A stretch of DNA of 21,852 nucleotides from positions 1-21,852 of the forward strand of contig JAAFKJ010000170.1 in NCBI GenBank assembly GCA_021399395.1, written 5' to 3'. Below are positions 455 through 16,018 of this stretch, one piece after another. How positions within the stretch are numbered: position 1 is the stretch's first letter; each line of letters starts with the position of its first letter. The notes beneath the pieces are model-generated. The model made no database searches. It saw only the letters and a program-made list of their open reading frames with translations, and was not told where the DNA came from. The DNA comes from Candidatus Heimdallarchaeota archaeon (GTDB lineage: Archaea; Asgardarchaeota; Heimdallarchaeia; Heimdallarchaeales; Heimdallarchaeaceae). The translations under genes were made by a program, and so were the position numbers.

Positions 455-3067
455 GTGAAAATAGTGAAACTTCCCAAACCATATGCAGCTATTTTGTTTA
501 ACTGGAACAAGGAGAAACGATCAGCTGACATTATCTATTTTGGTTTGCGTGATAAAAAAGAAAGAAGAGCACTAGTTCACACTAGATTACAATTCATTTA
601 TGAAAAAGGTAGAATGAGAGTCTATAAATATCTTAGACTTGGAAGAAGCACTAGTTTTTACATCAGACCTGGCTTTTCAACAGAAAATCTTCGTGATGCG
701 AATTATCTCCTTGTTCCCGATACTGATCTTCCCTGGGACAATAACGGATTAATCGAGTACTGTTCAACTTTTAAAATCTCTAAACCCAAAATTGTGCAAG
801 TCTGCTGGTCGTGTCTATTAAAAAGAAACAAATGGACAGTTTTGGAAACTGATTCAATCAAATACAAGGGTCATAGAATTTGTGAATATTGCAGTAAAAA
901 TGAATTAACAGCTGAACTACAGAAAAGCAATCTCTATGTTTCCGGTGGTTTGACAAAATTCTTCCAGCAACAAGCTCAGAGAGAGGGTAGTTTAGATAAT
1001 GTTCTAGAAAACATTTCGTTTGGTTCAGATCAAGATCCTGTAAGAAGACCTGATTCGACACTATTTGATATTATACCTGGAAAGAAAGCAGAAAGTGAGA
1101 TAAAGGTAAATTCCATAGATAAATTACCACGGAAATTCAGAGAGCAATTGGTAAGTGATGGAATCAAGACTCTGTTACCTGTACAAAAAGCAGCTATTGA
1201 TAGTGGATTGCTCACAAACAAGGATCTTCTTGTAGTTGCAGGAACTACCTCAGGTAAGACACTTGTCGGAGAGTTTGCTGGTATTCCCAAAGCGATGAAA
1301 GGGAAGAAATTCATATATCTATCACCTTTGGTTGCCCTTACAAATCAGAAATATGAGCAATTTAAGAAAAGATACAAACAATTAGAATTGAAGACAGCTA
1401 TTAGAGTTGGGATGAGCAGAATAAAAGTAGAGGGAGAATTCAAACCAATAATTGATGATCAGCTGAGAAATTCAAATATCGTAGTTGCAACATACGAAGC
1501 ATTTGATTTCTTGCTTAGAGATTCAAGAAAGAAGGATTTGGGGGAAATTGGTACTATTGTTATTGATGAGATTCAAATGCTGGTAGCAGAACAAAGAGGG
1601 TTCAGATTGAATGGTTTAATTGCGAGGTTGAAAGCATTGTTTCCAAAATCGCAGTTCATCTATCTTTCAGCTACAATAGGAAATCCAGAGGGGTTAGCTG
1701 AAGAGCTATCAGCTGATTGTGTAGAATATTTAGACAGACCTATCCCTCTTGAAAGACATACAGTTCTTACTGATAATGAAGCTGAAAGATTCGATCATTT
1801 ATACAATATTTGTAAGAATGAGGAAAAGGTGAGATCTAAAACAGGTTACAAAGGTCAAAGTTTAGTCTTTACCAATTCTCGAAAGAATTGTGAAGCACTA
1901 GCAAGAAAACTTAAACGAAGAGGGGTAAATTCAACCTATTACCACGCTGGTTTGACATATACTCACAGAAAACGAGTTGAGAGAGGTTTTGAAAAAGGCA
2001 GATACTCAACAGTTGTTACTACTATTGCGTTAGGTGCAGGAGTTGACTTTCCTGCTTCTGTTGTAATTTTTGAAAATCTTGCTATGGGTATTAAGTGGCT
2101 CTCTGTTGCCGAGTTTCATCAGATGCTTGGCAGAGCTGGTAGGTTTGGTTTCCATGCCAAAGGAAAAGTCTATTTACTCATCGAACCAGGTCGCAAAATA
2201 TTCGTAGGACAGAAAGAAACAGAGGAGCAAATAGCTTTCGGACTTCTCACCAAACCTATAGAAGATGTGGAACCTGTCTTAGATACAATTGAAGAAGAGG
2301 AGGAAGTTCTAGCAACTATTGTATCTTTTGATCAAGTTAATATTTCAGATGACAAGATGATTTTCGTTAACATCTTAGGAAGATCGAATCCATTAAGAGA
2401 AAATGTGAAATCACTAAGAAAAATGGAGTTGATTACTATCGAAGATAATGTTATCTCACCAACAAAGTTAGGAAGAGCCGTGTCACTCTCTTTTCTTTCT
2501 CCAGCATATGCGATTAGGATTGTTCAAGAAATTCAAAGAAAGAAAACAAAACACTATGAAGATGATTTCGCACTTACTTTAGCTATCAAAATCCGATCAT
2601 TTAGATCAGCTCATTTAGCTCCCCGTGTGCATGGAGATATTGAGAGAATACTCAAATCAACTATTTCTACAAATGTTTTTTCAGGAGCGATCCTAGATCT
2701 TTATTCAGGGGGTGGCTGGGGAAGTAACAATCCTTCAAAATTGGTAATTGATACTTTTAGCAATTGGACTAAGAACATTTTCACATGCAAGTGTGGAGAT
2801 AAACCATTCTGTGACTGTGGAGAAATAGCTTTCTCTAAAATTATTGTTGAATATCGTCAAAAAGGTTATTCTCCATCTCGTATATCAGATGAAATTAGGA
2901 AGAATTACAATATTCTAACTTATCCCGGAGATATCTACTCGTGGCTTGATTCCTTGGTTCATCATCTAAATGCAATTGAACGATTAGCAAAAGTTCTCGA
3001 CGAAGGCAAGTTACAGAAATCTGCTACTACGTTTACTAATGATATAGAGAATCCACAAATCGAATAG
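455..3067 (+). CDS. Archaea-specific superfamily II (Ski2-like, ASH/COG1202-type, DUF5814-like C-terminus) helicase
   Basis: Q-motif LLPVQ, motif I AGTTSGKT, Ia PLVALTNQKY, II DEIQ, III SAT, V ALGAGVDFPA, VI QMLGRAGR. N-terminal CWSC..CEYC zinc site and C-terminal CKCGDKPFCDCG cluster as in ASH-type helicases. GTG start. Confidence 0.9.
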   Translation: MKIVKLPKPYAAILFNWNKEKRSADIIYFGLRDKKERRALVHTRLQFIYEKGRMRVYKYLRLGRSTSFYIRPGFSTENLRDANYLLVPDTDLPWDNNGLIEYCSTFKISKPKIVQVCWSCLLKRNKWTVLETDSIKYKGHRICEYCSKNELTAELQKSNLYVSGGLTKFFQQQAQREGSLDNVLENISFGSDQDPVRRPDSTLFDIIPGKKAESEIKVNSIDKLPRKFREQLVSDGIKTLLPVQKAAIDSGLLTNKDLLVVAGTTSGKTLVGEFAGIPKAMKGKKFIYLSPLVALTNQKYEQFKKRYKQLELKTAIRVGMSRIKVEGEFKPIIDDQLRNSNIVVATYEAFDFLLRDSRKKDLGEIGTIVIDEIQMLVAEQRGFRLNGLIARLKALFPKSQFIYLSATIGNPEGLAEELSADCVEYLDRPIPLERHTVLTDNEAERFDHLYNICKNEEKVRSKTGYKGQSLVFTNSRKNCEALARKLKRRGVNSTYYHAGLTYTHRKRVERGFEKGRYSTVVTTIALGAGVDFPASVVIFENLAMGIKWLSVAEFHQMLGRAGRFGFHAKGKVYLLIEPGRKIFVGQKETEEQIAFGLLTKPIEDVEPVLDTIEEEEEVLATIVSFDQVNISDDKMIFVNILGRSNPLRENVKSLRKMELITIEDNVISPTKLGRAVSLSFLSPAYAIRIVQEIQRKKTKHYEDDFALTLAIKIRSFRSAHLAPRVHGDIERILKSTISTNVFSGAILDLYSGGGWGSNNPSKLVIDTFSNWTKNIFTCKCGDKPFCDCGEIAFSKIIVEYRQKGYSPSRISDEIRKNYNILTYPGDIYSWLDSLVHHLNAIERLAKVLDEGKLQKSATTFTNDIENPQIE

Positions 3068-3120: not shown

Positions 3121-4215
3121 ATGATTGTGCGAGACATTTACAAAAAAGATGAAGATATGGCTTTATCCATAGAAGATTTGGTAATGCTTATAGTAGGAAC
3201 CGTTGTTTTCGTATTAGCTTTTACCGATGTTAGAGCAGAATCTAATATTGTTTGGATTTCTTTTCTAGTTATAGTTCTCTTCATCGTGGGATGGGGATTT
3301 GTTCGATTCAGAAGAAGACCTCTACCAAAACAAGTTCATTATAAGAGAAGTATATATCTTCTACCAGTTAAGATACTTAGAAATTACCATCTACTTGCAT
3401 TAATTATTGAATATGCACTTATTCTATTTGGATATGTGCCCTTAGATACCAATGATGCCATAATTTCACTAATCTTTCATTTCTTCGCTCTATTCATATT
3501 AATGTTAATCGAGTTCGTTGGTCATGTAATCGTTTCTGATACTCTAGAAGTTTTAGTAAAACTTGATGAGGAAGAGGAATGGGAGTTCAAGAAAAAGAGA
3601 CAAAATATTCTATTTAACACTCAATTTTATATTTTCATTATAATAACAGGACTAGCTGGAGTAGGACTTTCCTTCTTCCCAATCAGATCTTTATTTAGCA
3701 TTGTAAGTATTTCAGTGAAAATTGTCCTATTAGTGATGCAGTTTGTTGCTCTTCTTGGTAGTGTTGCACTGTATATCTTTGTTTTTAACAAAACCATGAA
3801 TTTTGAGAAAATAAAAGATCCTAGCCTGATTTTGAAAGCTGTAAACTACTATGAATCTATGGATTTAGACGATAAAAGTTTTGCATTGCTTAACGATTAC
3901 ATTCAGAAGGATCCCTTGAATGTAGCAATTCTTTCTAAACTCTCAATCCTTCACACAAAACAAGGAAATTATGATAGAGTGTTGAAGTACACTGGCAAAG
4001 TCTTAGCAGAAATAGAAGAAAAACAATTGCATGTTCCACATATGACTTCACGAGCACATCTACTAAGAGCCATAAGTCTCAAGACTAAAGAGAAGTATAA
4101 AGAAGCTTACACTGAAGTAAATCAGTCGCTAACATATACTCCTGAAAATAATGCTGCCAGAAAATTAAGAAGAGATTTACGAAGAATTCTAAAAGCCAAA
4201 AAGTCAGAAAAATAG
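3121..4215 (+). CDS. Multipass membrane protein (about 6 TM helices) with C-terminal TPR repeats
   Basis: Six hydrophobic stretches in aa ~20-225. TPR-like segments follow (DPLNVAILSKLSILHTKQGNYDRVLKY; AHLLRAISLKTKEKYKEAYTEVNQSLTYTPENNAA). Alternative start at ATG 3157. Confidence 0.75.
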   Translation: MIVRDIYKKDEDMALSIEDLVMLIVGTVVFVLAFTDVRAESNIVWISFLVIVLFIVGWGFVRFRRRPLPKQVHYKRSIYLLPVKILRNYHLLALIIEYALILFGYVPLDTNDAIISLIFHFFALFILMLIEFVGHVIVSDTLEVLVKLDEEEEWEFKKKRQNILFNTQFYIFIIITGLAGVGLSFFPIRSLFSIVSISVKIVLLVMQFVALLGSVALYIFVFNKTMNFEKIKDPSLILKAVNYYESMDLDDKSFALLNDYIQKDPLNVAILSKLSILHTKQGNYDRVLKYTGKVLAEIEEKQLHVPHMTSRAHLLRAISLKTKEKYKEAYTEVNQSLTYTPENNAARKLRRDLRRILKAKKSEK

Positions 4216-4270: not shown

Positions 4271-5149
4271 ATGAAACTTTGCTCTATTGATACATCACTG
4301 AATGAAGAGGTGAAAGCTAAAACAATAGCTGGAACTATCAATCTGGATGTTGCACAAGTTAAAATCAATATTGTAAAGAAAAGAGGTCCTGGTTTAGATA
4401 GAAAAACACTAGAAAGATCCCATGTTCTATTCATTAGTTTACCTCGCAAAAAGATCTCACAAGAAGAGTATATTGAGCTTATCTCATACATTGATATCGG
4501 TGGGTGTCTAGTTCTAACTCTTCCATCTCCGCCATGGACAGATTTGGGGAGATTCTTTGAGGAATTTAGAAAAGAAATAGGTATATCTTTTCAATCAAAA
4601 TACGTTTACGGACTCCCAAAAATCCCTAATGAAACAAGATTAATTGGATCTCAATTAACCATTACCAAAGCTCATGTAATAAATGCTGAAACTGATGAAG
4701 AATTCTTAAAAGAAAACGGAATAAAAGAACTTATTCCTCTTGCTCTCATGGATGATGAACCTGTGGTAATGGCGGCTTATAAAAGAAGAGGAAGATTTGT
4801 TATCTTTAGTTCTCCAGAAATTTTTGATACAGTAAATTCTGACTTTCTAAGTCGACTGATACTTCTTTCAAGCAAAAAAGAGAGTTATACTCTTTCCAAT
4901 GAAATAGAAAAAATTCAGATTGGCTCTTCAAATTTCTCAATGCTTTTACAACATGCTTGTTTAGATAGTTATTTATTATCATTATACCATTATAATTTTG
5001 CATTTCATAAAGAAATTATCAGTTTAGAGAAAGAGTCCGAACTACCACAAAGAATCTATTCAATAATCTTGAAGCAGAAAGTATTAAGTGAAAGACCTAA
5101 ACAGGAAGACATCCTAGAAACTTTGCAGAAATTCAAAGTTGAGAGTTGA
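4271..5149 (+). CDS. Cytoplasmic GIFT-domain (IFT52/GldG/DUF4350-like, class I GATase-like fold) protein
   Basis: LDRKTLERSHVLFISLPRKKISQEEYIELISYIDIGGCLVL, EIGISF and EPVVMAAYKRRGRFVIFSSPEIF..NSDFLSRLI follow the GIFT consensus in order. No signal peptide or TM helix. Confidence 0.7.
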   Translation: MKLCSIDTSLNEEVKAKTIAGTINLDVAQVKINIVKKRGPGLDRKTLERSHVLFISLPRKKISQEEYIELISYIDIGGCLVLTLPSPPWTDLGRFFEEFRKEIGISFQSKYVYGLPKIPNETRLIGSQLTITKAHVINAETDEEFLKENGIKELIPLALMDDEPVVMAAYKRRGRFVIFSSPEIFDTVNSDFLSRLILLSSKKESYTLSNEIEKIQIGSSNFSMLLQHACLDSYLLSLYHYNFAFHKEIISLEKESELPQRIYSIILKQKVLSERPKQEDILETLQKFKVES

Positions 5150-5154
5150 GATAA

Positions 5155-6222
5155 GTGTTAATAAAACGGATAATGATTATTACTGAAGCCGGAGTTCCTA
5201 TATTTGATTTTCAAGAATTTGCAAGAGGAGATGAAATTCTAGTTTCAGGATTAATCACTGCTATTTTGAGATTTATTGAGGAAACAGAGAAAGACAAACT
5301 TTCCAGACTATTACTCGAAGAAAGCCAATTTCTCATTACTTCTAAAGAAACACTTATTTTTATCTTCCAAATTGATGATGAAATGCCAGCTGATTATGCA
5401 GAATACGTTAGTAATTTTATCTCAGAGAGCTTTATTGAGAGGTTTAGTAAGGAGGTAAAACAATTTGCTGGAAATGTTAGTTTATTTCAAGAATTTCAGA
5501 CTCAATGTAAAACTATACTCTTACAGTGTGGTATAGAAATAGCTGATTCTTTAATGGAAAACAAGGAATCTCAAGATTTGCGAGCTTGGTGTCTATTTTC
5601 TAAAGAAAATGAACCTCTCATTGTGCATGCAAACTCTCCAAATTATAACATTGACAGTTTCACAATTTATCAGATATTAGGTAAAAGCTTTAGAAGAGTA
5701 GCCGCAAAGCTTAAAGATTGCTCTAAGGGGACTTGTTTTCATATAACACACCTAGGAAATTCAATTCAAACAATTGTTCTCCCAAATGTATTTTTTGTTT
5801 TAGAATCAAAAATAAGTGAATTTGAAGTTAAAAGATTTAAACAGTTTAAGATAAAGACTGCTCAACAGCTTCTAGATCACTTCGATAAGGTATACAAACC
5901 GAATAAAATTGATATTTTCAACAAAGATGGTATTTCGTCTACAACTAATTCTGAAATGAGTGATAATTACAAACTTATAGTAGATTTATTTAAAGCGGCT
6001 GAAAAAGGGTTTCAATATTTGTTCAATTCTCCAGTACACATTCAAATCCTTTGTACATCAAATAATTGTTTCCTCCACGTAAAATTAGTTAATCGTGTAA
6101 TTATTATGGAATACACAAACGAAATCTCTATTTCAGATTTACTTGAGAAAACTAAGAAGGTATTTGAAGCTGAAGTTACACTTATGGACGATAGCCCTGA
6201 ATTAGTGCTAGAAAAATCGTAG
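5155..6222 (+). CDS. Longin-domain protein with two further roadblock/longin-like domains
   Basis: aa 1-124 follow the longin pattern (IMIITEAGVPIF; DEILVSGLITAILRFIEE; FAGNVSLFQEF). aa ~127-232 and ~235-340 each show an alpha-beta-beta-alpha-beta-beta-beta-alpha roadblock-like pattern (e.g. KIDIFNKDGISS). GTG start 5 bp after the previous stop. Confidence 0.75.
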   Translation: MLIKRIMIITEAGVPIFDFQEFARGDEILVSGLITAILRFIEETEKDKLSRLLLEESQFLITSKETLIFIFQIDDEMPADYAEYVSNFISESFIERFSKEVKQFAGNVSLFQEFQTQCKTILLQCGIEIADSLMENKESQDLRAWCLFSKENEPLIVHANSPNYNIDSFTIYQILGKSFRRVAAKLKDCSKGTCFHITHLGNSIQTIVLPNVFFVLESKISEFEVKRFKQFKIKTAQQLLDHFDKVYKPNKIDIFNKDGISSTTNSEMSDNYKLIVDLFKAAEKGFQYLFNSPVHIQILCTSNNCFLHVKLVNRVIIMEYTNEISISDLLEKTKKVFEAEVTLMDDSPELVLEKS

Positions 6223-7186
6223 TAGCAGTTATATCTGCAGCTGTTCCTGGGTTTATGACTCTTTTATTCGAGGTTGTAAGGAATTCATTAAGTTCAGTTA
6301 TCAGTCCCAAACCATCTTGTGTAAATACTCCACCTGCTTTGATAATTTCCTTAGCTTTAATATTCACTTTAGAAGCAACCTCATTACCAAATCTTTTAGC
6401 AATATGAGTATCTTTCTTCTCGGACATCAATGTAATATAAGTCTGAGTAGTAGCTGTTTTGAAATTCTGATCTTCTTCATAACATCTAAGGAACGTAGGA
6501 AAACCGATTTTCATAGTAGTCTGGTATTTGTGAGAGAGTTCATAGAAAACCAAATCTCGTTCCTCATAGAATTTAGTGAATTCAAATAGATTTGTACGTT
6601 CAAGGTTGTGAATTTCTAAAAATGAATTGAAGTTATCTTCTTCTTTTTCAGATGGAAGAATATTCTTAGATACTGATTTATTGAGAGCTTTAGTTAGATA
6701 GATACAATCGTCTGTTGTTGAATTTTTAAGAAACTGTTCAGTAACGTAAATCACATTATCTAAGTTAATTTTAGCATTTGTTTTCATCCCTTCATTTGCA
6801 AAACAGTTTGCAATACCTAATGTTATAGGAGTAAACATCAACAGTGTCCCAAGAATTGTGTTTCCTGATGCTTTATACCAGGTTTGTGATTTCTCAAGAG
6901 CTTTTTCTATGTAATAACCTATTTCTGCATCTTCATACCACAGATGATTTTCAGCAACAAGAATTCCTCTCTTTGCTAAACCAAATATAGGTGAAAACAA
7001 ACTGCTAGCACCAGCAAGAAAGTGCTCTGATTTGGTATCTTGAAATTCATTCTTGAATGATGCGCCACCGGGTTTGGTATCATTAGCGTAAAATAGATTA
7101 TGTGCTAAAACAGCGCTTTGAGCAATAAACAGCTGTACATCCAGAACCTTTCCCTTAACTTCGTTCGATATCTCAGAGAAAGGCAT
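6182..7186 (-). CDS. citG: CitG-family triphosphoribosyl-dephospho-CoA synthase-like protein (archaeal type)
   Basis: Motifs TKPG, NTILGTLLMFTP, DTHIAKRFG and INPGTAADITATTIF match the CitG family. The 3' end overlaps the convergent longin gene by 41 bp. Confidence 0.85.
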   Translation of the reverse strand: MPFSEISNEVKGKVLDVQLFIAQSAVLAHNLFYANDTKPGGASFKNEFQDTKSEHFLAGASSLFSPIFGLAKRGILVAENHLWYEDAEIGYYIEKALEKSQTWYKASGNTILGTLLMFTPITLGIANCFANEGMKTNAKINLDNVIYVTEQFLKNSTTDDCIYLTKALNKSVSKNILPSEKEEDNFNSFLEIHNLERTNLFEFTKFYEERDLVFYELSHKYQTTMKIGFPTFLRCYEEDQNFKTATTQTYITLMSEKKDTHIAKRFGNEVASKVNIKAKEIIKAGGVFTQDGLGLITELNEFLTTSNKRVINPGTAADITATTIFLALIQGYRP

Positions 7187-10576: not shown

Positions 10577-11482
10577 CTATTTAGCTTTCCTTCGAGCTCT
10601 CTCTTCTTCTTTAGCTCTTTTCTTTGCTCGTTTTTCTTCTTCATTACGTTCTTTTTCTCTTCTTTTCTCCCTTTCTTGCATTTCCTTCTCTTTTTGTTTC
10701 TCTTCTTTCTTAAGTTCTTTCTCAGAGAGTTTCTTAATTTCCTTCTTTAACACAGTTGGAATTGGGAGATTTTTTGTAGATTCAGTAACTTTTGCAAAGA
10801 ATTTCAATACAGTCATTGCGAACTTTGTTAGTACCAACAAATCAGCAGGTTGTTTAGTAAGGTTAAATTTAAGTTCAAAGTGAGGTTCATCGGTTCTGAC
10901 TGAAATCCATTGTAATTCCTTGGGGTATTCAGATAAAGCTTTGATGAACGAATTGCTTCGTATGAGTTGGTTGATAGCTCGACCTTTATTAGATTTGATT
11001 AGAAAATTACCATTGACTTCTGCATCTGGAGTAGCAAGGTCATCAATCTCTACTAGGTAATCGAAGTCTTTTTTTATTGCAGATTTCATTTTATATGGAA
11101 TCACTTCAAAGAGAACACGTGGTTTATCTTGAAAATTGGCAGCTAATCCAAAAGAGTCTTTATTTCTGAAGAACAATCCATCAACAAGCATTGTTGGAAA
11201 ACTAGTTCTTGGGAGAAGTATTAACCAAGCAGATGCACTCGTAACGATGAAATCTTCATTCAGTTGGCATCTAATTTCAACTTGTCTATCGTTTGGATCT
11301 TTTCGAGAATAATTCATTATATGTGGGTCCATCGCTGTTAGAACATCTTCGAAATATTGCTCTTTCTTCTTCTTATTTGCAAATCTCCCCCAAATCCAGA
11401 ATCCTAAGTATAGGCCTATAAAAACAAGTACAGGTCCCAACATTGCTAATATTGAAACAAAATCAAATGCAGCATCAGCCAT
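10577..11482 (-). CDS. CCDC47 / DUF1682-like single-pass membrane protein (PAT complex subunit homologue)
   Basis: N-terminal TM ending in WIWGRFAN, an alpha/beta domain with [26 protein letters not shown] and FELKFNL, and a highly charged K/E/R C-terminal helix, colinear with CCDC47 as remembered. ATG 11482 is preferred over GTG 11494 because GGGTG lies just upstream. Confidence 0.72.
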   Translation of the reverse strand: [301 protein letters not shown]

Positions 11483-11535
11483 AGTAATACACACCCATTT
11501 TTTCCCAACTTCTTAAAAATGTTATGAATGAGAGG

Positions 11536-12099
11536 TTATATCTTCATCGCGTCGCTCTTCTTTCGCATTATTATTCTACCTAAATCAAGAAATGCTTCAT
11601 TAACATTTGAACCTGTCAAAGCACATGTAGAGAAATAATCAATTAGTTCCAGAAATTCAAATTTATTCATATTTTCCTCAAGAAATATTTTTGCCTGAGA
11701 ATCAAATAGCGCATTTTGCTCCTTTTCCATTAAGTCATCTTTATTTCCCAGGAGGTAAATCGGAATTTTTGTACTCAATGAACTATTTATTTCTTCAAGC
11801 CATCTTGATAAGCTTGCAAAAGTCTCTAGTCTGCTTTTGTCGAAAACTAATAATCCGCCTTCTGATCCTACATATTGTTTCTTTCTTAGTTTGTGATATT
11901 CCTTTTGTCCTCCAAGATCCCAGATCTGAAAAGTTATTTCTATATCTTCATCAACATGCTTATGTGATGCTAGGTCTACTCCCAAAGTGCTCATATAAGC
12001 TTCTTCCAAGTGTAAGCCCATAAAATTACGCTTCAGAGTTGTTTTACCTGTAGCTGCATCACCAAGGAGGACAATTTTTACAGTTCCAAAGACAGACAT
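11536..12099 (-). CDS. Rab-like small GTPase (Ras superfamily, Asgard type)
   Basis: G1 GDAATGKTT, G2 YMSTLG, G3 IWDLGGQ, G4 GNKDD, G5 TCALTG, then NVNEAF. No C-terminal Cys prenylation motif. Confidence 0.95.
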   Translation of the reverse strand: MSVFGTVKIVLLGDAATGKTTLKRNFMGLHLEEAYMSTLGVDLASHKHVDEDIEITFQIWDLGGQKEYHKLRKKQYVGSEGGLLVFDKSRLETFASLSRWLEEINSSLSTKIPIYLLGNKDDLMEKEQNALFDSQAKIFLEENMNKFEFLELIDYFSTCALTGSNVNEAFLDLGRIIMRKKSDAMKI

Positions 12100-15100: not shown

Positions 15101-16018
15101 ATGAAGTCATGCGATGTTCCTGGATGCGAAGAGGAAGAATCTTTACCTTTCAAATGTAAACTTTGTGACCGAATGTATTGTGCAAAACATAGACTTCCAG
15201 AACAACATGAATGTCCAATGATCGGTATTTATCAGTCTGAGGTATATAAAAAATCGAAACTTTCCCAACCGAGAAAAGAGGAAGAGATACCAAAGAAAAC
15301 AAAACTCAAACATCGAGGGGAGAAATTGCTAAGTCCCAGAGATGCAGAAACAAAATCAGTTTATTATGAACCTCAAGATAGGTTCCTGACTCGTTCTTCA
15401 TTTTTTAATATTCAAAGCTTACGAAGGGATTATCTCAATATCCTAATTATACTTGTTATTTTTAGTACATTTATTACTTTGAATATTATAGTTTTACATA
15501 CTTTGTATAGAGGTCTTCCAATCGCAGCACTAGATTGGAATGTTGTATTTATCAACATAGGAGCTATTAATTTTATTTTTGGAGGTTATTTTGTTATTCA
15601 AAAAATAACTGCACGATATATGAAAGAAGAAACAAAAGTTGTTTTATGGCTGTGGGGAATTGTTCTAGGAATATTAAGTATACTCCTTCCATTGTTTGCA
15701 GTTCCAGGATTCTTAACATTTAAGGAAGGAAGATCTAGTAACAATAACAGAGGAAAAATATCTTTCATTGGAATTTCTTGGATACTAACATGGTGCACTG
15801 TCATACTTATTTTTCTTTATTCGAATGGTTTTGGAGTACCCTATCTTGCAGAACTTTCTTACGCTCCAAGTTTGATGTTACTATTTGTTCTATTCTCACT
15901 TTTACCTTTTGGAATCTTTGCAGGAAAATACATTAGTGGATGGAATAGATATGTACACATGGGGAGTTTTCTATACACATTTATCATATTTATACTCTAT
16001 TTAATTGTTAGATATTAA
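15101..16018 (+). CDS. AN1-type zinc finger fused to M50 (site-2 protease)-like membrane domain lacking catalytic residues
   Basis: AN1 ligands C4, C9, C19, C22, C27, H30, H36, C38 (LPFKC..C...YCAKHRLPEQHEC). The membrane domain keeps M50 landmarks (QKITA, FAVPG, RGKISFIG, LFSLLPFG, GK..GWN) but has no HExxH and no LDG. Confidence 0.8.
   Translation: MKSCDVPGCEEEESLPFKCKLCDRMYCAKHRLPEQHECPMIGIYQSEVYKKSKLSQPRKEEEIPKKTKLKHRGEKLLSPRDAETKSVYYEPQDRFLTRSSFFNIQSLRRDYLNILIILVIFSTFITLNIIVLHTLYRGLPIAALDWNVVFINIGAINFIFGGYFVIQKITARYMKEETKVVLWLWGIVLGILSILLPLFAVPGFLTFKEGRSSNNNRGKISFIGISWILTWCTVILIFLYSNGFGVPYLAELSYAPSLMLLFVLFSLLPFGIFAGKYISGWNRYVHMGSFLYTFIIFILYLIVRY

Follow-up and report, generated by a model that had tools for sequence, protein, structure and literature searches.

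Does an archaeon encode a protein built like the tri-longin domain (TLD) subunits of eukaryotic guanine nucleotide exchange factors (GEFs) that act on Rab GTPases, and what is its relationship to them? The question is raised by a gene of Candidatus Heimdallarchaeota archaeon (Heimdallarchaeaceae; assembly GCA_021399395.1) found at 5155..6222 of contig JAAFKJ010000170.1, of which positions 1 to 21,852 were analysed as a whole (the window; contig C84 of this 2.8-Mb genome, which is in 201 contigs and 81.8% complete). TLD RabGEFs control endosome-lysosome identity, lysosome-related organelles and ciliogenesis. A first-pass annotation of the window had proposed that the gene product joins a longin and two roadblock domains in the manner of these exchange factors and might represent a prokaryotic precursor of them. 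On the evidence of predicted structures, the nearest structural equivalent among archaea of a TLD RabGEF subunit is the Asgard family to which this protein belongs. We class the protein itself as a tri-longin variant that falls outside the eukaryotic TLD family proper.

The gene of the three-domain protein (P0001) is on the + strand, with the stop codon included in the coordinates given, and codes for 355 residues. In the list of open reading frames (ORFs) it starts with GTG; the N-terminal LIKRI sequence is kept in the orthologs, which supports this start. The 33 homologs identified in a word-indexed search are 318-361 residues long (31 of them 343-361) and share 39-99% identity with the query. 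Wherever the source gives an organism, it is Heimdallarchaeota or Heimdallarchaeaceae. The alignment of this close family (A1, 33 sequences) has a mean column identity of 68%. An exhaustive phmmer search of 1.84 billion cluster representatives returned 58 proteins with E ≤ 1e-3, including 10 with E ≤ 1e-30. We also surveyed a sample of 400 genomes of the phylum, which includes 30 further genomes of the archaeon's own family. Of these, 28 have strong matches (E ≤ 1e-78), and the remaining two (88% and 72% complete) yielded weak longin-level matches only. Judging from this sequence conservation, 5155..6222 is a real, conserved gene under selection.

The family extends well beyond the Heimdallarchaeaceae. 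The exhaustive search also gave proteins of 343-379 residues whose match to the query reaches past the first domain, and 12 of them (alignment A2) aligned with the close family over 316 columns that span all three domains (hhalign probability 99.4%, E 1.5e-21). The named sources of distant members are Ca. Ranarchaeia and Ca. Kariarchaeaceae, and one member carries the source name 'predicted regulator of Ras-like GTPase activity (Roadblock/LC7/MglB family)'. A search with A2 gave 20 proteins, among them P0097 of Ca. Lokiarchaeum ossiferum (373 residues, 16% identical to the Heimdallarchaeaceae protein); there is no eukaryotic name in this set, in which 5 of the 20 are named by their source and 3 of the 20 have a named organism. 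Five genomes, complete or nearly so and belonging to four Asgard families, each yielded exactly one full-length match, out of 17-94 matches. Among the matches listed (150 of 204), the other 16-93 per genome concern the first domain only, and those not listed are weaker. Similarly, no second full-length copy was found by sequence in the archaeon's own genome. As far as sequence comparison can tell, the gene is thus the ortholog in Heimdallarchaeaceae of a family that is divergent and spread across Asgard archaea, with further members in Lokiarchaeia, Kariarchaeaceae and Ranarchaeia. NCBIfam has no family for the three-domain protein or its Loki ortholog P0097, nor for two neighbours discussed below, up292 and a membrane protein of the distant branch. 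The ESM Atlas places the three-domain protein near unnamed archaeal clusters and one Fuz_longin_1 cluster at 0.84, which we treat as a lead.

Two AlphaFold2 (AF2) models were built, one for the three-domain protein with the 33-homolog alignment (predicted local distance difference test score, pLDDT, 82.7; predicted template modelling score, pTM, 0.81) and one for P0097 with a 42-sequence alignment (pLDDT 89.9, pTM 0.87). Both show the same string of three domains. The first (LD1, residues 1-125, 5155..5529) is a canonical longin domain with a ββ-α-βββ-α-α topology (strands at residues 3-10, 15-18, 49-54, 57-64 and 67-73; helices at 27-44, 79-102 and 108-124). The second (LD2, residues 126-233, 5530..5853) is of the roadblock type, α-ββ-α-βββ (helices at 127-141 and 168-187; strands at 144-149, 154-159, 192-198, 202-208 and 212-219), and hhalign shows that it is homologous to LD2 of the distant Asgard members. 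The third (LD3, residues 234-340, 5854..6174) is also of the roadblock type, α-ββ-α-βββ-α, and its modelled elements read α-β(β)-α-βββ-α (helices at 236-247, 270-290 and 326-338; strands at 251-256, 294-301, 305-310 and 314-320). A C-terminal tail (residues 341-355, 6175..6219) is predicted to be disordered, with pLDDT < 50 for residues 342-355.

Sub-alignments of LD2 and LD3 matched each other in the same register over 71 columns (hhalign local probability 84.7%, E 6.7e-6). No significant similarity was found by hhalign between LD1 and LD2 or LD3 (probability 2-3%). The protein is thus composed of a longin domain and two duplicated roadblock-type domains. The helix that comes after the LD2 strands could be assigned to LD2 or to LD3 from the secondary-structure string. 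However, it stands right before the LD3 strands (residues 236-247 here, 235-251 in P0097), and this position, together with the in-register alignment, suggests that LD3 probably owns its first helix. The longin-roadblock-roadblock architecture of the first-pass annotation is therefore borne out by both models, and its domain boundaries (1-124, ~127-232 and ~235-340) fall within a few residues of the modelled elements. The ITEAGVPIF string that it had likened to Mon1 and Fuzzy is present at residues 9-17.

We then compared the models with solved structures (350,542 PDB chains) using Foldseek. The three-domain protein gave 55 matches at E ≤ 0.001, and down to rank 18 each of the 14 matches listed is a chain from a Mon1-Ccz1, BLOC-3 or Fuzzy-Inturned/CPLANE complex. 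The Mon1-Ccz1 entries come from fungi, fly and human, and some also contain RMC1/Bulli or the Rab. These TLD chains matched with E values of 1.5e-10 to 1.1e-5 over 361-475 aligned columns, a length to which all three domains must contribute. Single-domain longin and roadblock proteins matched more weakly (E about 3e-4 to 8e-4): LD1 aligned with Sec22b (E 3e-4, target-normalised template modelling (TM) score, TMt, 0.73, root-mean-square deviation (rmsd) 3.4 Å) and also with AP sigma subunits, and the dynein roadblock chain 3l7h_B matched with E 7.8e-4 and TMt 0.52. The search with P0097 gave the same outcome, as all 17 matches listed through rank 21 are chains of TLD complexes (E 5.2e-10 to 1.4e-4, 413-490 columns). 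The comparison with Mon1-Ccz1 and CPLANE structures that had been put forward as a check of the annotation thus returned, for two models, listed top matches that are exclusively Mon1-Ccz1, BLOC-3 and CPLANE-type TLD chains.

After the TLD chains, the first Foldseek list contains PAS-GAF-PHY modules of bacteriophytochromes (E 8e-5 to 8e-4), and AP sigma or mu subunits are found in both lists. These matches raise the alternative that the protein has nothing to do with GTPases, being either a tandem α/β sensor or adaptor of the PAS-GAF-PHY kind or a coat- or adaptor-like subunit that works with GIFT-domain or membrane proteins. We consider this improbable. The phytochrome matches are five to six orders of magnitude weaker than those of the TLD chains, with TM scores of 0.15-0.18. 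No conserved polar or cysteine residues of the sort that bind ligands were seen; the conserved set consists of Gly, Ala and Phe. In addition, the characterised longin and roadblock pairs known to us are GTPase platforms or regulators of SNAREs and coats (PMC3747258, in its accessible part). The genomic context, treated below, also bears on this alternative.

Like Mon1, Ccz1, HPS1, HPS4, Fuzzy and Inturned (the 'HerMon' proteins), the Asgard protein has three longin-type domains in one chain and in the same order. The available part of Klink 2022 (PMC8833172) describes LD1 of TLD proteins as a canonical longin, LD2 as roadblock type and LD3 as lamtor type, completed by a helix called αX; LD1 is a canonical longin and LD2 of the roadblock type in both Asgard models as well. 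LD2 and LD3 also share the α-ββ-α-βββ topology of Roadblock/LC7/MglB and LAMTOR (Ragulator) proteins. The latter, however, are single-domain proteins that act as dimers; the Asgard protein joins two roadblock domains to a preceding longin.

LD1 provides a link at the sequence level. Pfam Fuz_longin_1 (PF19036) represents the first longin domain of FUZ, MON1 and HPS1. It matches residues 4-71 of the three-domain protein with E 0.0077 and 16.9 bits, under the 26.1-bit cutoff of the family. At E ≤ 1 it matches 20 of the 33 close members (best E 0.0013) and 7 of the 12 distant ones, and one of the latter, P0055, passes the cutoff with 29.3 bits. A precomputed PF19036 label is present on 12 of the 20 distant members; automatic annotation thus already marks some LD1 domains of the family.

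The distribution of conserved residues also points to LD1. Conservation was counted in the 42 sequences of the superfamily alignment A4, and that of LD2 and LD3 is far below that of LD1. Ten residues are conserved in at least 90% of the sequences: G13 in the β1-β2 loop; G32, A36 and F40 in α1; F93 in α2; F104, G106, F111 and F114 in the α2-α3 connection; and G126. The G-x-P motif of the β1-β2 loop (G13-V14-P15, 5191..5199, +) has G13 in 40/42 and P15 in 28/42 sequences. The most conserved helix is α1 (residues 27-44, 5233..5286, +; G32 39/42, A36 40/42, F40 40/42), which carries the small residues G32 and A36 at positions i and i+4, in addition to L29, S31 and F40. An F-x-G-N-V-S-x-F-x-x-F motif (residues 104-114, 5464..5496, +) occupies the α2-α3 connection (F104 38/42, G106 39/42, F111 41/42, F114 41/42), and G126, at the LD1-LD2 junction, is conserved in 40/42. 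In Mon1-Ccz1, according to the accessible part of Kiontke 2017 (PMC5216073), the Rab binds the α1 surfaces of the LD1 pair, small residues at i/i+4 being essential (G250/T254 in Mon1, G106/G110 in Ccz1), and Mon1 adds an elbow loop between α2 and α3 with an SxDxR motif, plus a helix α0. The same source describes the TRAPP longin pair as a GEF platform formed through α1 surfaces. Conservation in the Asgard family is thus found on the LD1 elements that contact the Rab in Mon1-Ccz1, the α1 face and the α2-α3 connection, and we infer from their secondary-structure positions that the two patches would correspond to its Rab-gripping elements. LD1 is acidic (net charge -9 in the Heimdallarchaeaceae protein, family mean -6.8), and LD2 and LD3 are close to neutral (means of -0.3 and +0.6). 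By net charge, LD2 and LD3 lack the consistent basic patch that would liken them to their TLD counterparts.

The conserved Gly and Pro of the β1-β2 loop recall another group of longin proteins, the FLCN/SMCR8-type and NPRL2-type longins of Asgard archaea, which are putative regulators of small GTPases. In its accessible part, a 2025 study in Traffic (PMC12290439) describes Asgard longins with a GP motif before β2 and an arginine finger. The three-domain protein might accordingly be a relative of FLCN, SMCR8, C9orf72 and NPRL2, a class with look-alikes in Heimdallarchaeia, and act as a GTPase-activating protein, stimulating GTP hydrolysis with an arginine finger. The alignment does not support this. 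The motif of the loop is G-x-P (27/42 sequences), and a literal GP is present in 0/42. LD1 has no conserved arginine: R24 is found in 11/42, and the best column, position 63, has R in 22/42 and S in the Heimdallarchaeaceae protein. More generally, no column of Arg, Lys, Asp or Glu reaches 90% among the 42 sequences. The C-terminal part consists of two roadblock domains and not of a DENN or NPRL2-type region, and no FLCN, SMCR8 or NPRL chain is present among the matches listed in either Foldseek search. We therefore regard a GTPase-activating function of this type as very improbable.

Taken together, the architecture, the exclusive TLD chains among the listed top matches and the Fuz_longin_1 signal speak for an ancestral-type relative of TLD proteins that acts on a small GTPase through LD1, a reading that we consider evenly poised. 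The following results weigh against it. Neither Fuz_longin_2 nor Fuz_longin_3 is among the Pfam matches at E ≤ 1 of the close members (33 proteins, 25 of 28 family matches listed) or of the 12 distant members (all 10 matches listed). Searched directly against the genome, the hidden Markov model (HMM) of PF19037 matched nothing at E ≤ 10, and that of PF19038 had a single, unrelated match (E 0.217). Profiles of the family run against the sequences of PDB chains at E ≤ 10 returned 0 matches with one of the alignments A1 and A2 and an irrelevant tetraspanin (E 1.8) with the other. Fuz_longin_1 itself matches 9 places in the archaeon's own genome, and the three-domain gene ranks fifth among them. 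LD1 is thus of a class that makes up a large longin family in Asgard archaea, and by itself it does not qualify the protein as a TLD. As an isolated domain, LD1 is structurally closer to Sec22b and sigma-adaptins. No paralogous full-length partner subunit was found by sequence in the archaeon's own genome or in the five more complete ones, nor was a conserved neighbour of the GTPase kind found.

The remaining points against this reading are structural. Rigid-body superposition on TLD subunits is poor for both models (TM score normalised on the query, TMq, 0.22-0.29, rmsd 21-24 Å; for P0097, TM 0.22-0.28 against TLD chains). The predicted packing thus differs from the triangle in which, according to the available part of Klink 2022 (PMC8833172), TLD domains pack, with heterodimers formed via LD1-LD1 and LD3-LD3 sheets. 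The TLD-like packing by which the first-pass annotation had proposed to judge its own claim is therefore not seen. As the P0097 model replicates both, the resemblance to TLD chains and the difference in packing are properties of the family and not of one model. It must also be noted that Foldseek significance rises with three weak collinear domain matches, whether or not they were inherited as a unit. The αX-βX motif of the LD1-LD2 linker, called 'unique and defining' for TLD proteins in the same part of that paper, is absent from both Asgard models, in which the LD1-LD2 junction is about 2 residues long around G126, with no strand. Finally, the SxDxR motif of Mon1 is replaced by F-x-G-N-V-S-x-F-x-x-F at the elbow-loop position.

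Other differences from TLD subunits concern size and composition. The Asgard protein has about 355 residues and is devoid of long loops or a disordered N-terminus, and nothing helical precedes β1 in the Asgard model, whereas Mon1 has α0. Its LD3 appears to bear its own N-terminal helix, unlike the lamtor-type LD3 of eukaryotes, and a single copy per Asgard genome takes the place of the paralogous heterodimer pair. The absence of αX-βX, of the Mon1 elbow motif and of a paralogous partner, and the different predicted packing, are the reasons why we do not count the protein as a bona fide TLD member. The first-pass annotation had noted the lack of the Mon1 NYDLR motif (SxDxR in Kiontke 2017), and this absence is confirmed in the sequence and in the 42-sequence alignment. 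Its proposal to apply Pfam HMMs to each domain gave a mixed result: Fuz_longin_1 recognises LD1, below threshold for this protein and above it for P0055, but neither Fuz_longin_2/3 nor Robl_LC7 gives a signal for the other domains (for Robl_LC7, no match at E ≤ 1 among the 33 close members, with 25 of 28 family matches listed, and the 12 distant ones).

Could the resemblance then be convergent? An independent Asgard fusion of a longin domain with a duplicated roadblock domain, serving as a generic GTPase platform or regulator in the manner of MglB or Ragulator/LAMTOR, is quite possible, though we would not put it forward as our favoured explanation. The raw material for such a fusion is plentiful, with 17-94 LD1-type matches per Asgard genome, the 9 places recognised by Fuz_longin_1 in this genome and architectures that are shuffled. 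The accessible part of the Liu et al. preprint likewise reports 130 asCOGs (Asgard clusters of orthologous genes) of the Roadblock/LC7 superfamily and extensive domain shuffling. Confinement of the TLD-model sequence signal to LD1, the non-TLD packing, the missing αX-βX and the source name of the distant Roadblock/LC7/MglB-family member would also fit convergence. However, TLD subunits have precisely this order of domains (longin, roadblock-type, roadblock/lamtor-type), and no other class of solved proteins comes ahead of the TLD chains in either Foldseek list. The Pfam signal of LD1, below the cutoff in this protein, is to the FUZ/MON1/HPS1 family rather than to Robl_LC7 or to the SNARE-type Longin family. 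Moreover, the family is an old one and has a single copy throughout the Asgard classes, which is what an ancestor would be expected to show. Based on structure and collinearity, shared descent with the eukaryotic TLD GEFs is plausible. LD1 taken alone superposes best on Sec22b and AP sigma, but these longins, like those of TRAPPC1/Bet5 and TRAPPC4/Trs23, are single-domain subunits of multi-subunit complexes without appended roadblock domains.

Longins of the LD1 class occur in other contexts in these genomes. In the archaeon's own genome, four TPR-repeat proteins of about 650-680 residues (L004-L007, on contigs C102, C124, C132 and C192) have a C-terminal longin of this class, and the one on C102 passes the Fuz_longin_1 cutoff with 26.7 bits. 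Another protein (L002, C87) has an LD1-class longin followed by hydrophobic, apparently transmembrane segments, and a 141-residue stand-alone longin (L003, C74) harbours an F-x-G-N-V-x-x-F motif as in LD1. Elsewhere in the phylum, ORFs of genome G015 (C1:529090-529437 and 537473-537805) and many ORFs of 357-382 residues in genome G127 begin with an LD1-type longin, with no similarity detectable downstream. Those of ~360-380 residues could be diverged three-domain paralogs, and hence possible partners, or unrelated fusions. Longer fused forms were not found with the 42-sequence profile A4 at E ≤ 1e-5, which is weak evidence.

How might the protein work? The protein, which we read as soluble and compact, is probably a small-GTPase regulator or platform. 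In the ancestral-type reading, the α1 face of LD1 and the adjacent conserved loop would bind one of the ~30 Ras/Rab/Arf-like small GTPases of its genome and would hold it in a particular nucleotide state, the protein being an exchange factor or a regulatory platform. Like longin and roadblock pairs in general, it would probably dimerise via the LD1 edge strands, and LD2-LD3 would form a scaffold or localisation module. Prediction of a two-copy complex with alignment A1 gave scores of 0.21 and 0.23 (mark 0.42) and was run without controls; it was used neither for nor against self-association.

A more specific version of this scenario can be considered in the light of earlier work. In the accessible part of their article, Sanchez-Pulido & Ponting 2019 (PMC7703760) predicted that the precursor of the eukaryotic proteins was a single homodimer with three consecutive longin domains, and the presence of one full-length copy in each of the five complete or near-complete genomes fits that prediction. 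The Asgard family might then be the surviving ancestor of all tri-longin RabGEFs, a homodimer that activates an archaeal Rab-like GTPase and from which Mon1/Ccz1 and the others derived. Duplication, loop expansion and a helix swap, in which αX from the LD1-LD2 linker replaced LD3's own first helix, would have produced Mon1/Ccz1 and, at a later point, HPS1/HPS4 and Fuzzy/Inturned. We regard this full scenario as rather unlikely. The notion of a TLD-GEF-like precursor put forward in the first-pass annotation therefore stands as regards architecture, listed structural matches and Fuz_longin_1, and falls short as regards packing, αX-βX, Fuz_longin_2/3 and the specificity of LD1.

We examined whether the gene neighbourhood nominates a substrate or a partner. 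A Ras/Rab-family GTPase (PF00071, E 2.7e-33) is encoded in the window at 11536..12099 (-), 5.3 kb from the three-domain gene. In the distant loci, a GTPase gene is found within about 6 kb in 3/14 and is immediately adjacent in 1. The archaeon's own genome has 32 Ras-family matches per 2.8 Mb, so that a GTPase gene would be that near by chance at ~15% of loci. We therefore rejected proximity as evidence, and no substrate is nominated from context. The GTPase gene adjoins a CCDC47-like gene (10577..11494, -; PF07946 PAT complex subunit, 35.4 bits against a cutoff of 27.7), and the pair is kept in all 12 of the 21 close loci whose contig reaches both genes. CCDC47 is a eukaryotic factor of membrane-protein biogenesis in the endoplasmic reticulum.

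Immediately upstream of the three-domain gene, up292 (4271..5149, +) codes for a 292-residue protein with a probable GIFT domain (GldG/IFT52/DUF4350-like) and ends 5 nt before it. Its orthologs have sub-threshold matches to Pfam IFT52_GIFT in 18/19 cases (best E 4.7e-4), and its Atlas neighbours at 0.90-0.93 include clusters of eukaryotic IFT52 together with many DUF4350/ABC_transp_aux clusters from bacteria and archaea. The two genes adjoin in 21/21 close loci and in 0/14 distant ones; they may share an operon, in the archaeon's own family only. A search of sequencing runs listed no RNA data. A block of 12 genes is collinear in all 21 close loci as far as the contigs reach, which is not discriminating as these loci are closely related. 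None of the window neighbours is retained in the 14 distant family loci.

In contrast, 8 of the 14 distant loci (Loki-type branch) have an adjoining gene for a multi-pass membrane protein of about 345-426 residues (L049:10577-11653, +, with counterparts in L048, L050, L051, L054, L057, L060 and L061). Its C-terminal soluble domain is highly conserved and has two invariant cysteines. Neither Pfam nor NCBIfam has a family for it, no relative of solved structure was found, and a search of the archaeon's own genome with one query did not find it. This protein could be a membrane partner of the three-domain protein. The alternative of a sensor, adaptor or coat-like subunit draws its remaining support from these loci, namely from the GIFT-domain gene that abuts the three-domain gene in its own family, the membrane-protein neighbour in 8/14 distant loci and the failure to find a GTPase linkage.

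Other genes of the window are as follows. The 3' end of the three-domain gene overlaps a convergent CitG-family gene (6182..7186, -). Upstream, 455..3067 (+) codes for a DEAD/Helicase_C helicase with a C-terminal DUF5814, and 3121..4215 (+) for a 364-residue protein with an N-terminal hydrophobic region, likely to span the membrane, and C-terminal TPR repeats; both genes are upstream of the three-domain gene in the close loci that reach them. The product of 15101..16018 (+) has 305 residues and carries an AN1-type zinc finger at its N-terminus (PF01428, E 5.8e-13). Such zinc fingers are mostly known from eukaryotic stress and ubiquitin-pathway proteins.

The searchable literature, which is thin on subscription papers, contains no report of an Asgard tri-longin protein, and supplementary tables of eukaryotic signature proteins (ESPs) may list the family. 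It could be entered under a longin/roadblock group in the asCOG and ESP tables by Liu et al. or in the catalogs by Eme 2023 and Koestlbacher. In the accessible parts of PMC10933270, PMC11513930 and PMC12290439, mention of Mon1 is confined to reference lists or comparison sets. Asgard architectures of the FLCN-like and NPRL2-like kinds are described in the available part of the Liu et al. preprint, according to which multidomain architectures are shared in a minority of cases, typically with two domains. In line with the first-pass annotation, the literature searched treats three-domain TLD GEFs as eukaryotic inventions.

A homodimeric precursor with three longin domains was inferred in 2019, and no such protein had been pointed out; this Asgard family shows an architecture of that kind. 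Given this architecture, its single copy and its presence in the cultured Ca. Lokiarchaeum ossiferum, the hypothesis can be tested at the bench. If the ancestor reading is true, the origin of the Rab7-type activation module would predate eukaryogenesis, and a Rab-activation module would join the TRAPP-like, FLCN-like and Ragulator-like parts of the Asgard trafficking toolkit. If the resemblance is convergent, the family is still a conserved, uncharacterised Asgard regulator of longin-roadblock-roadblock architecture.

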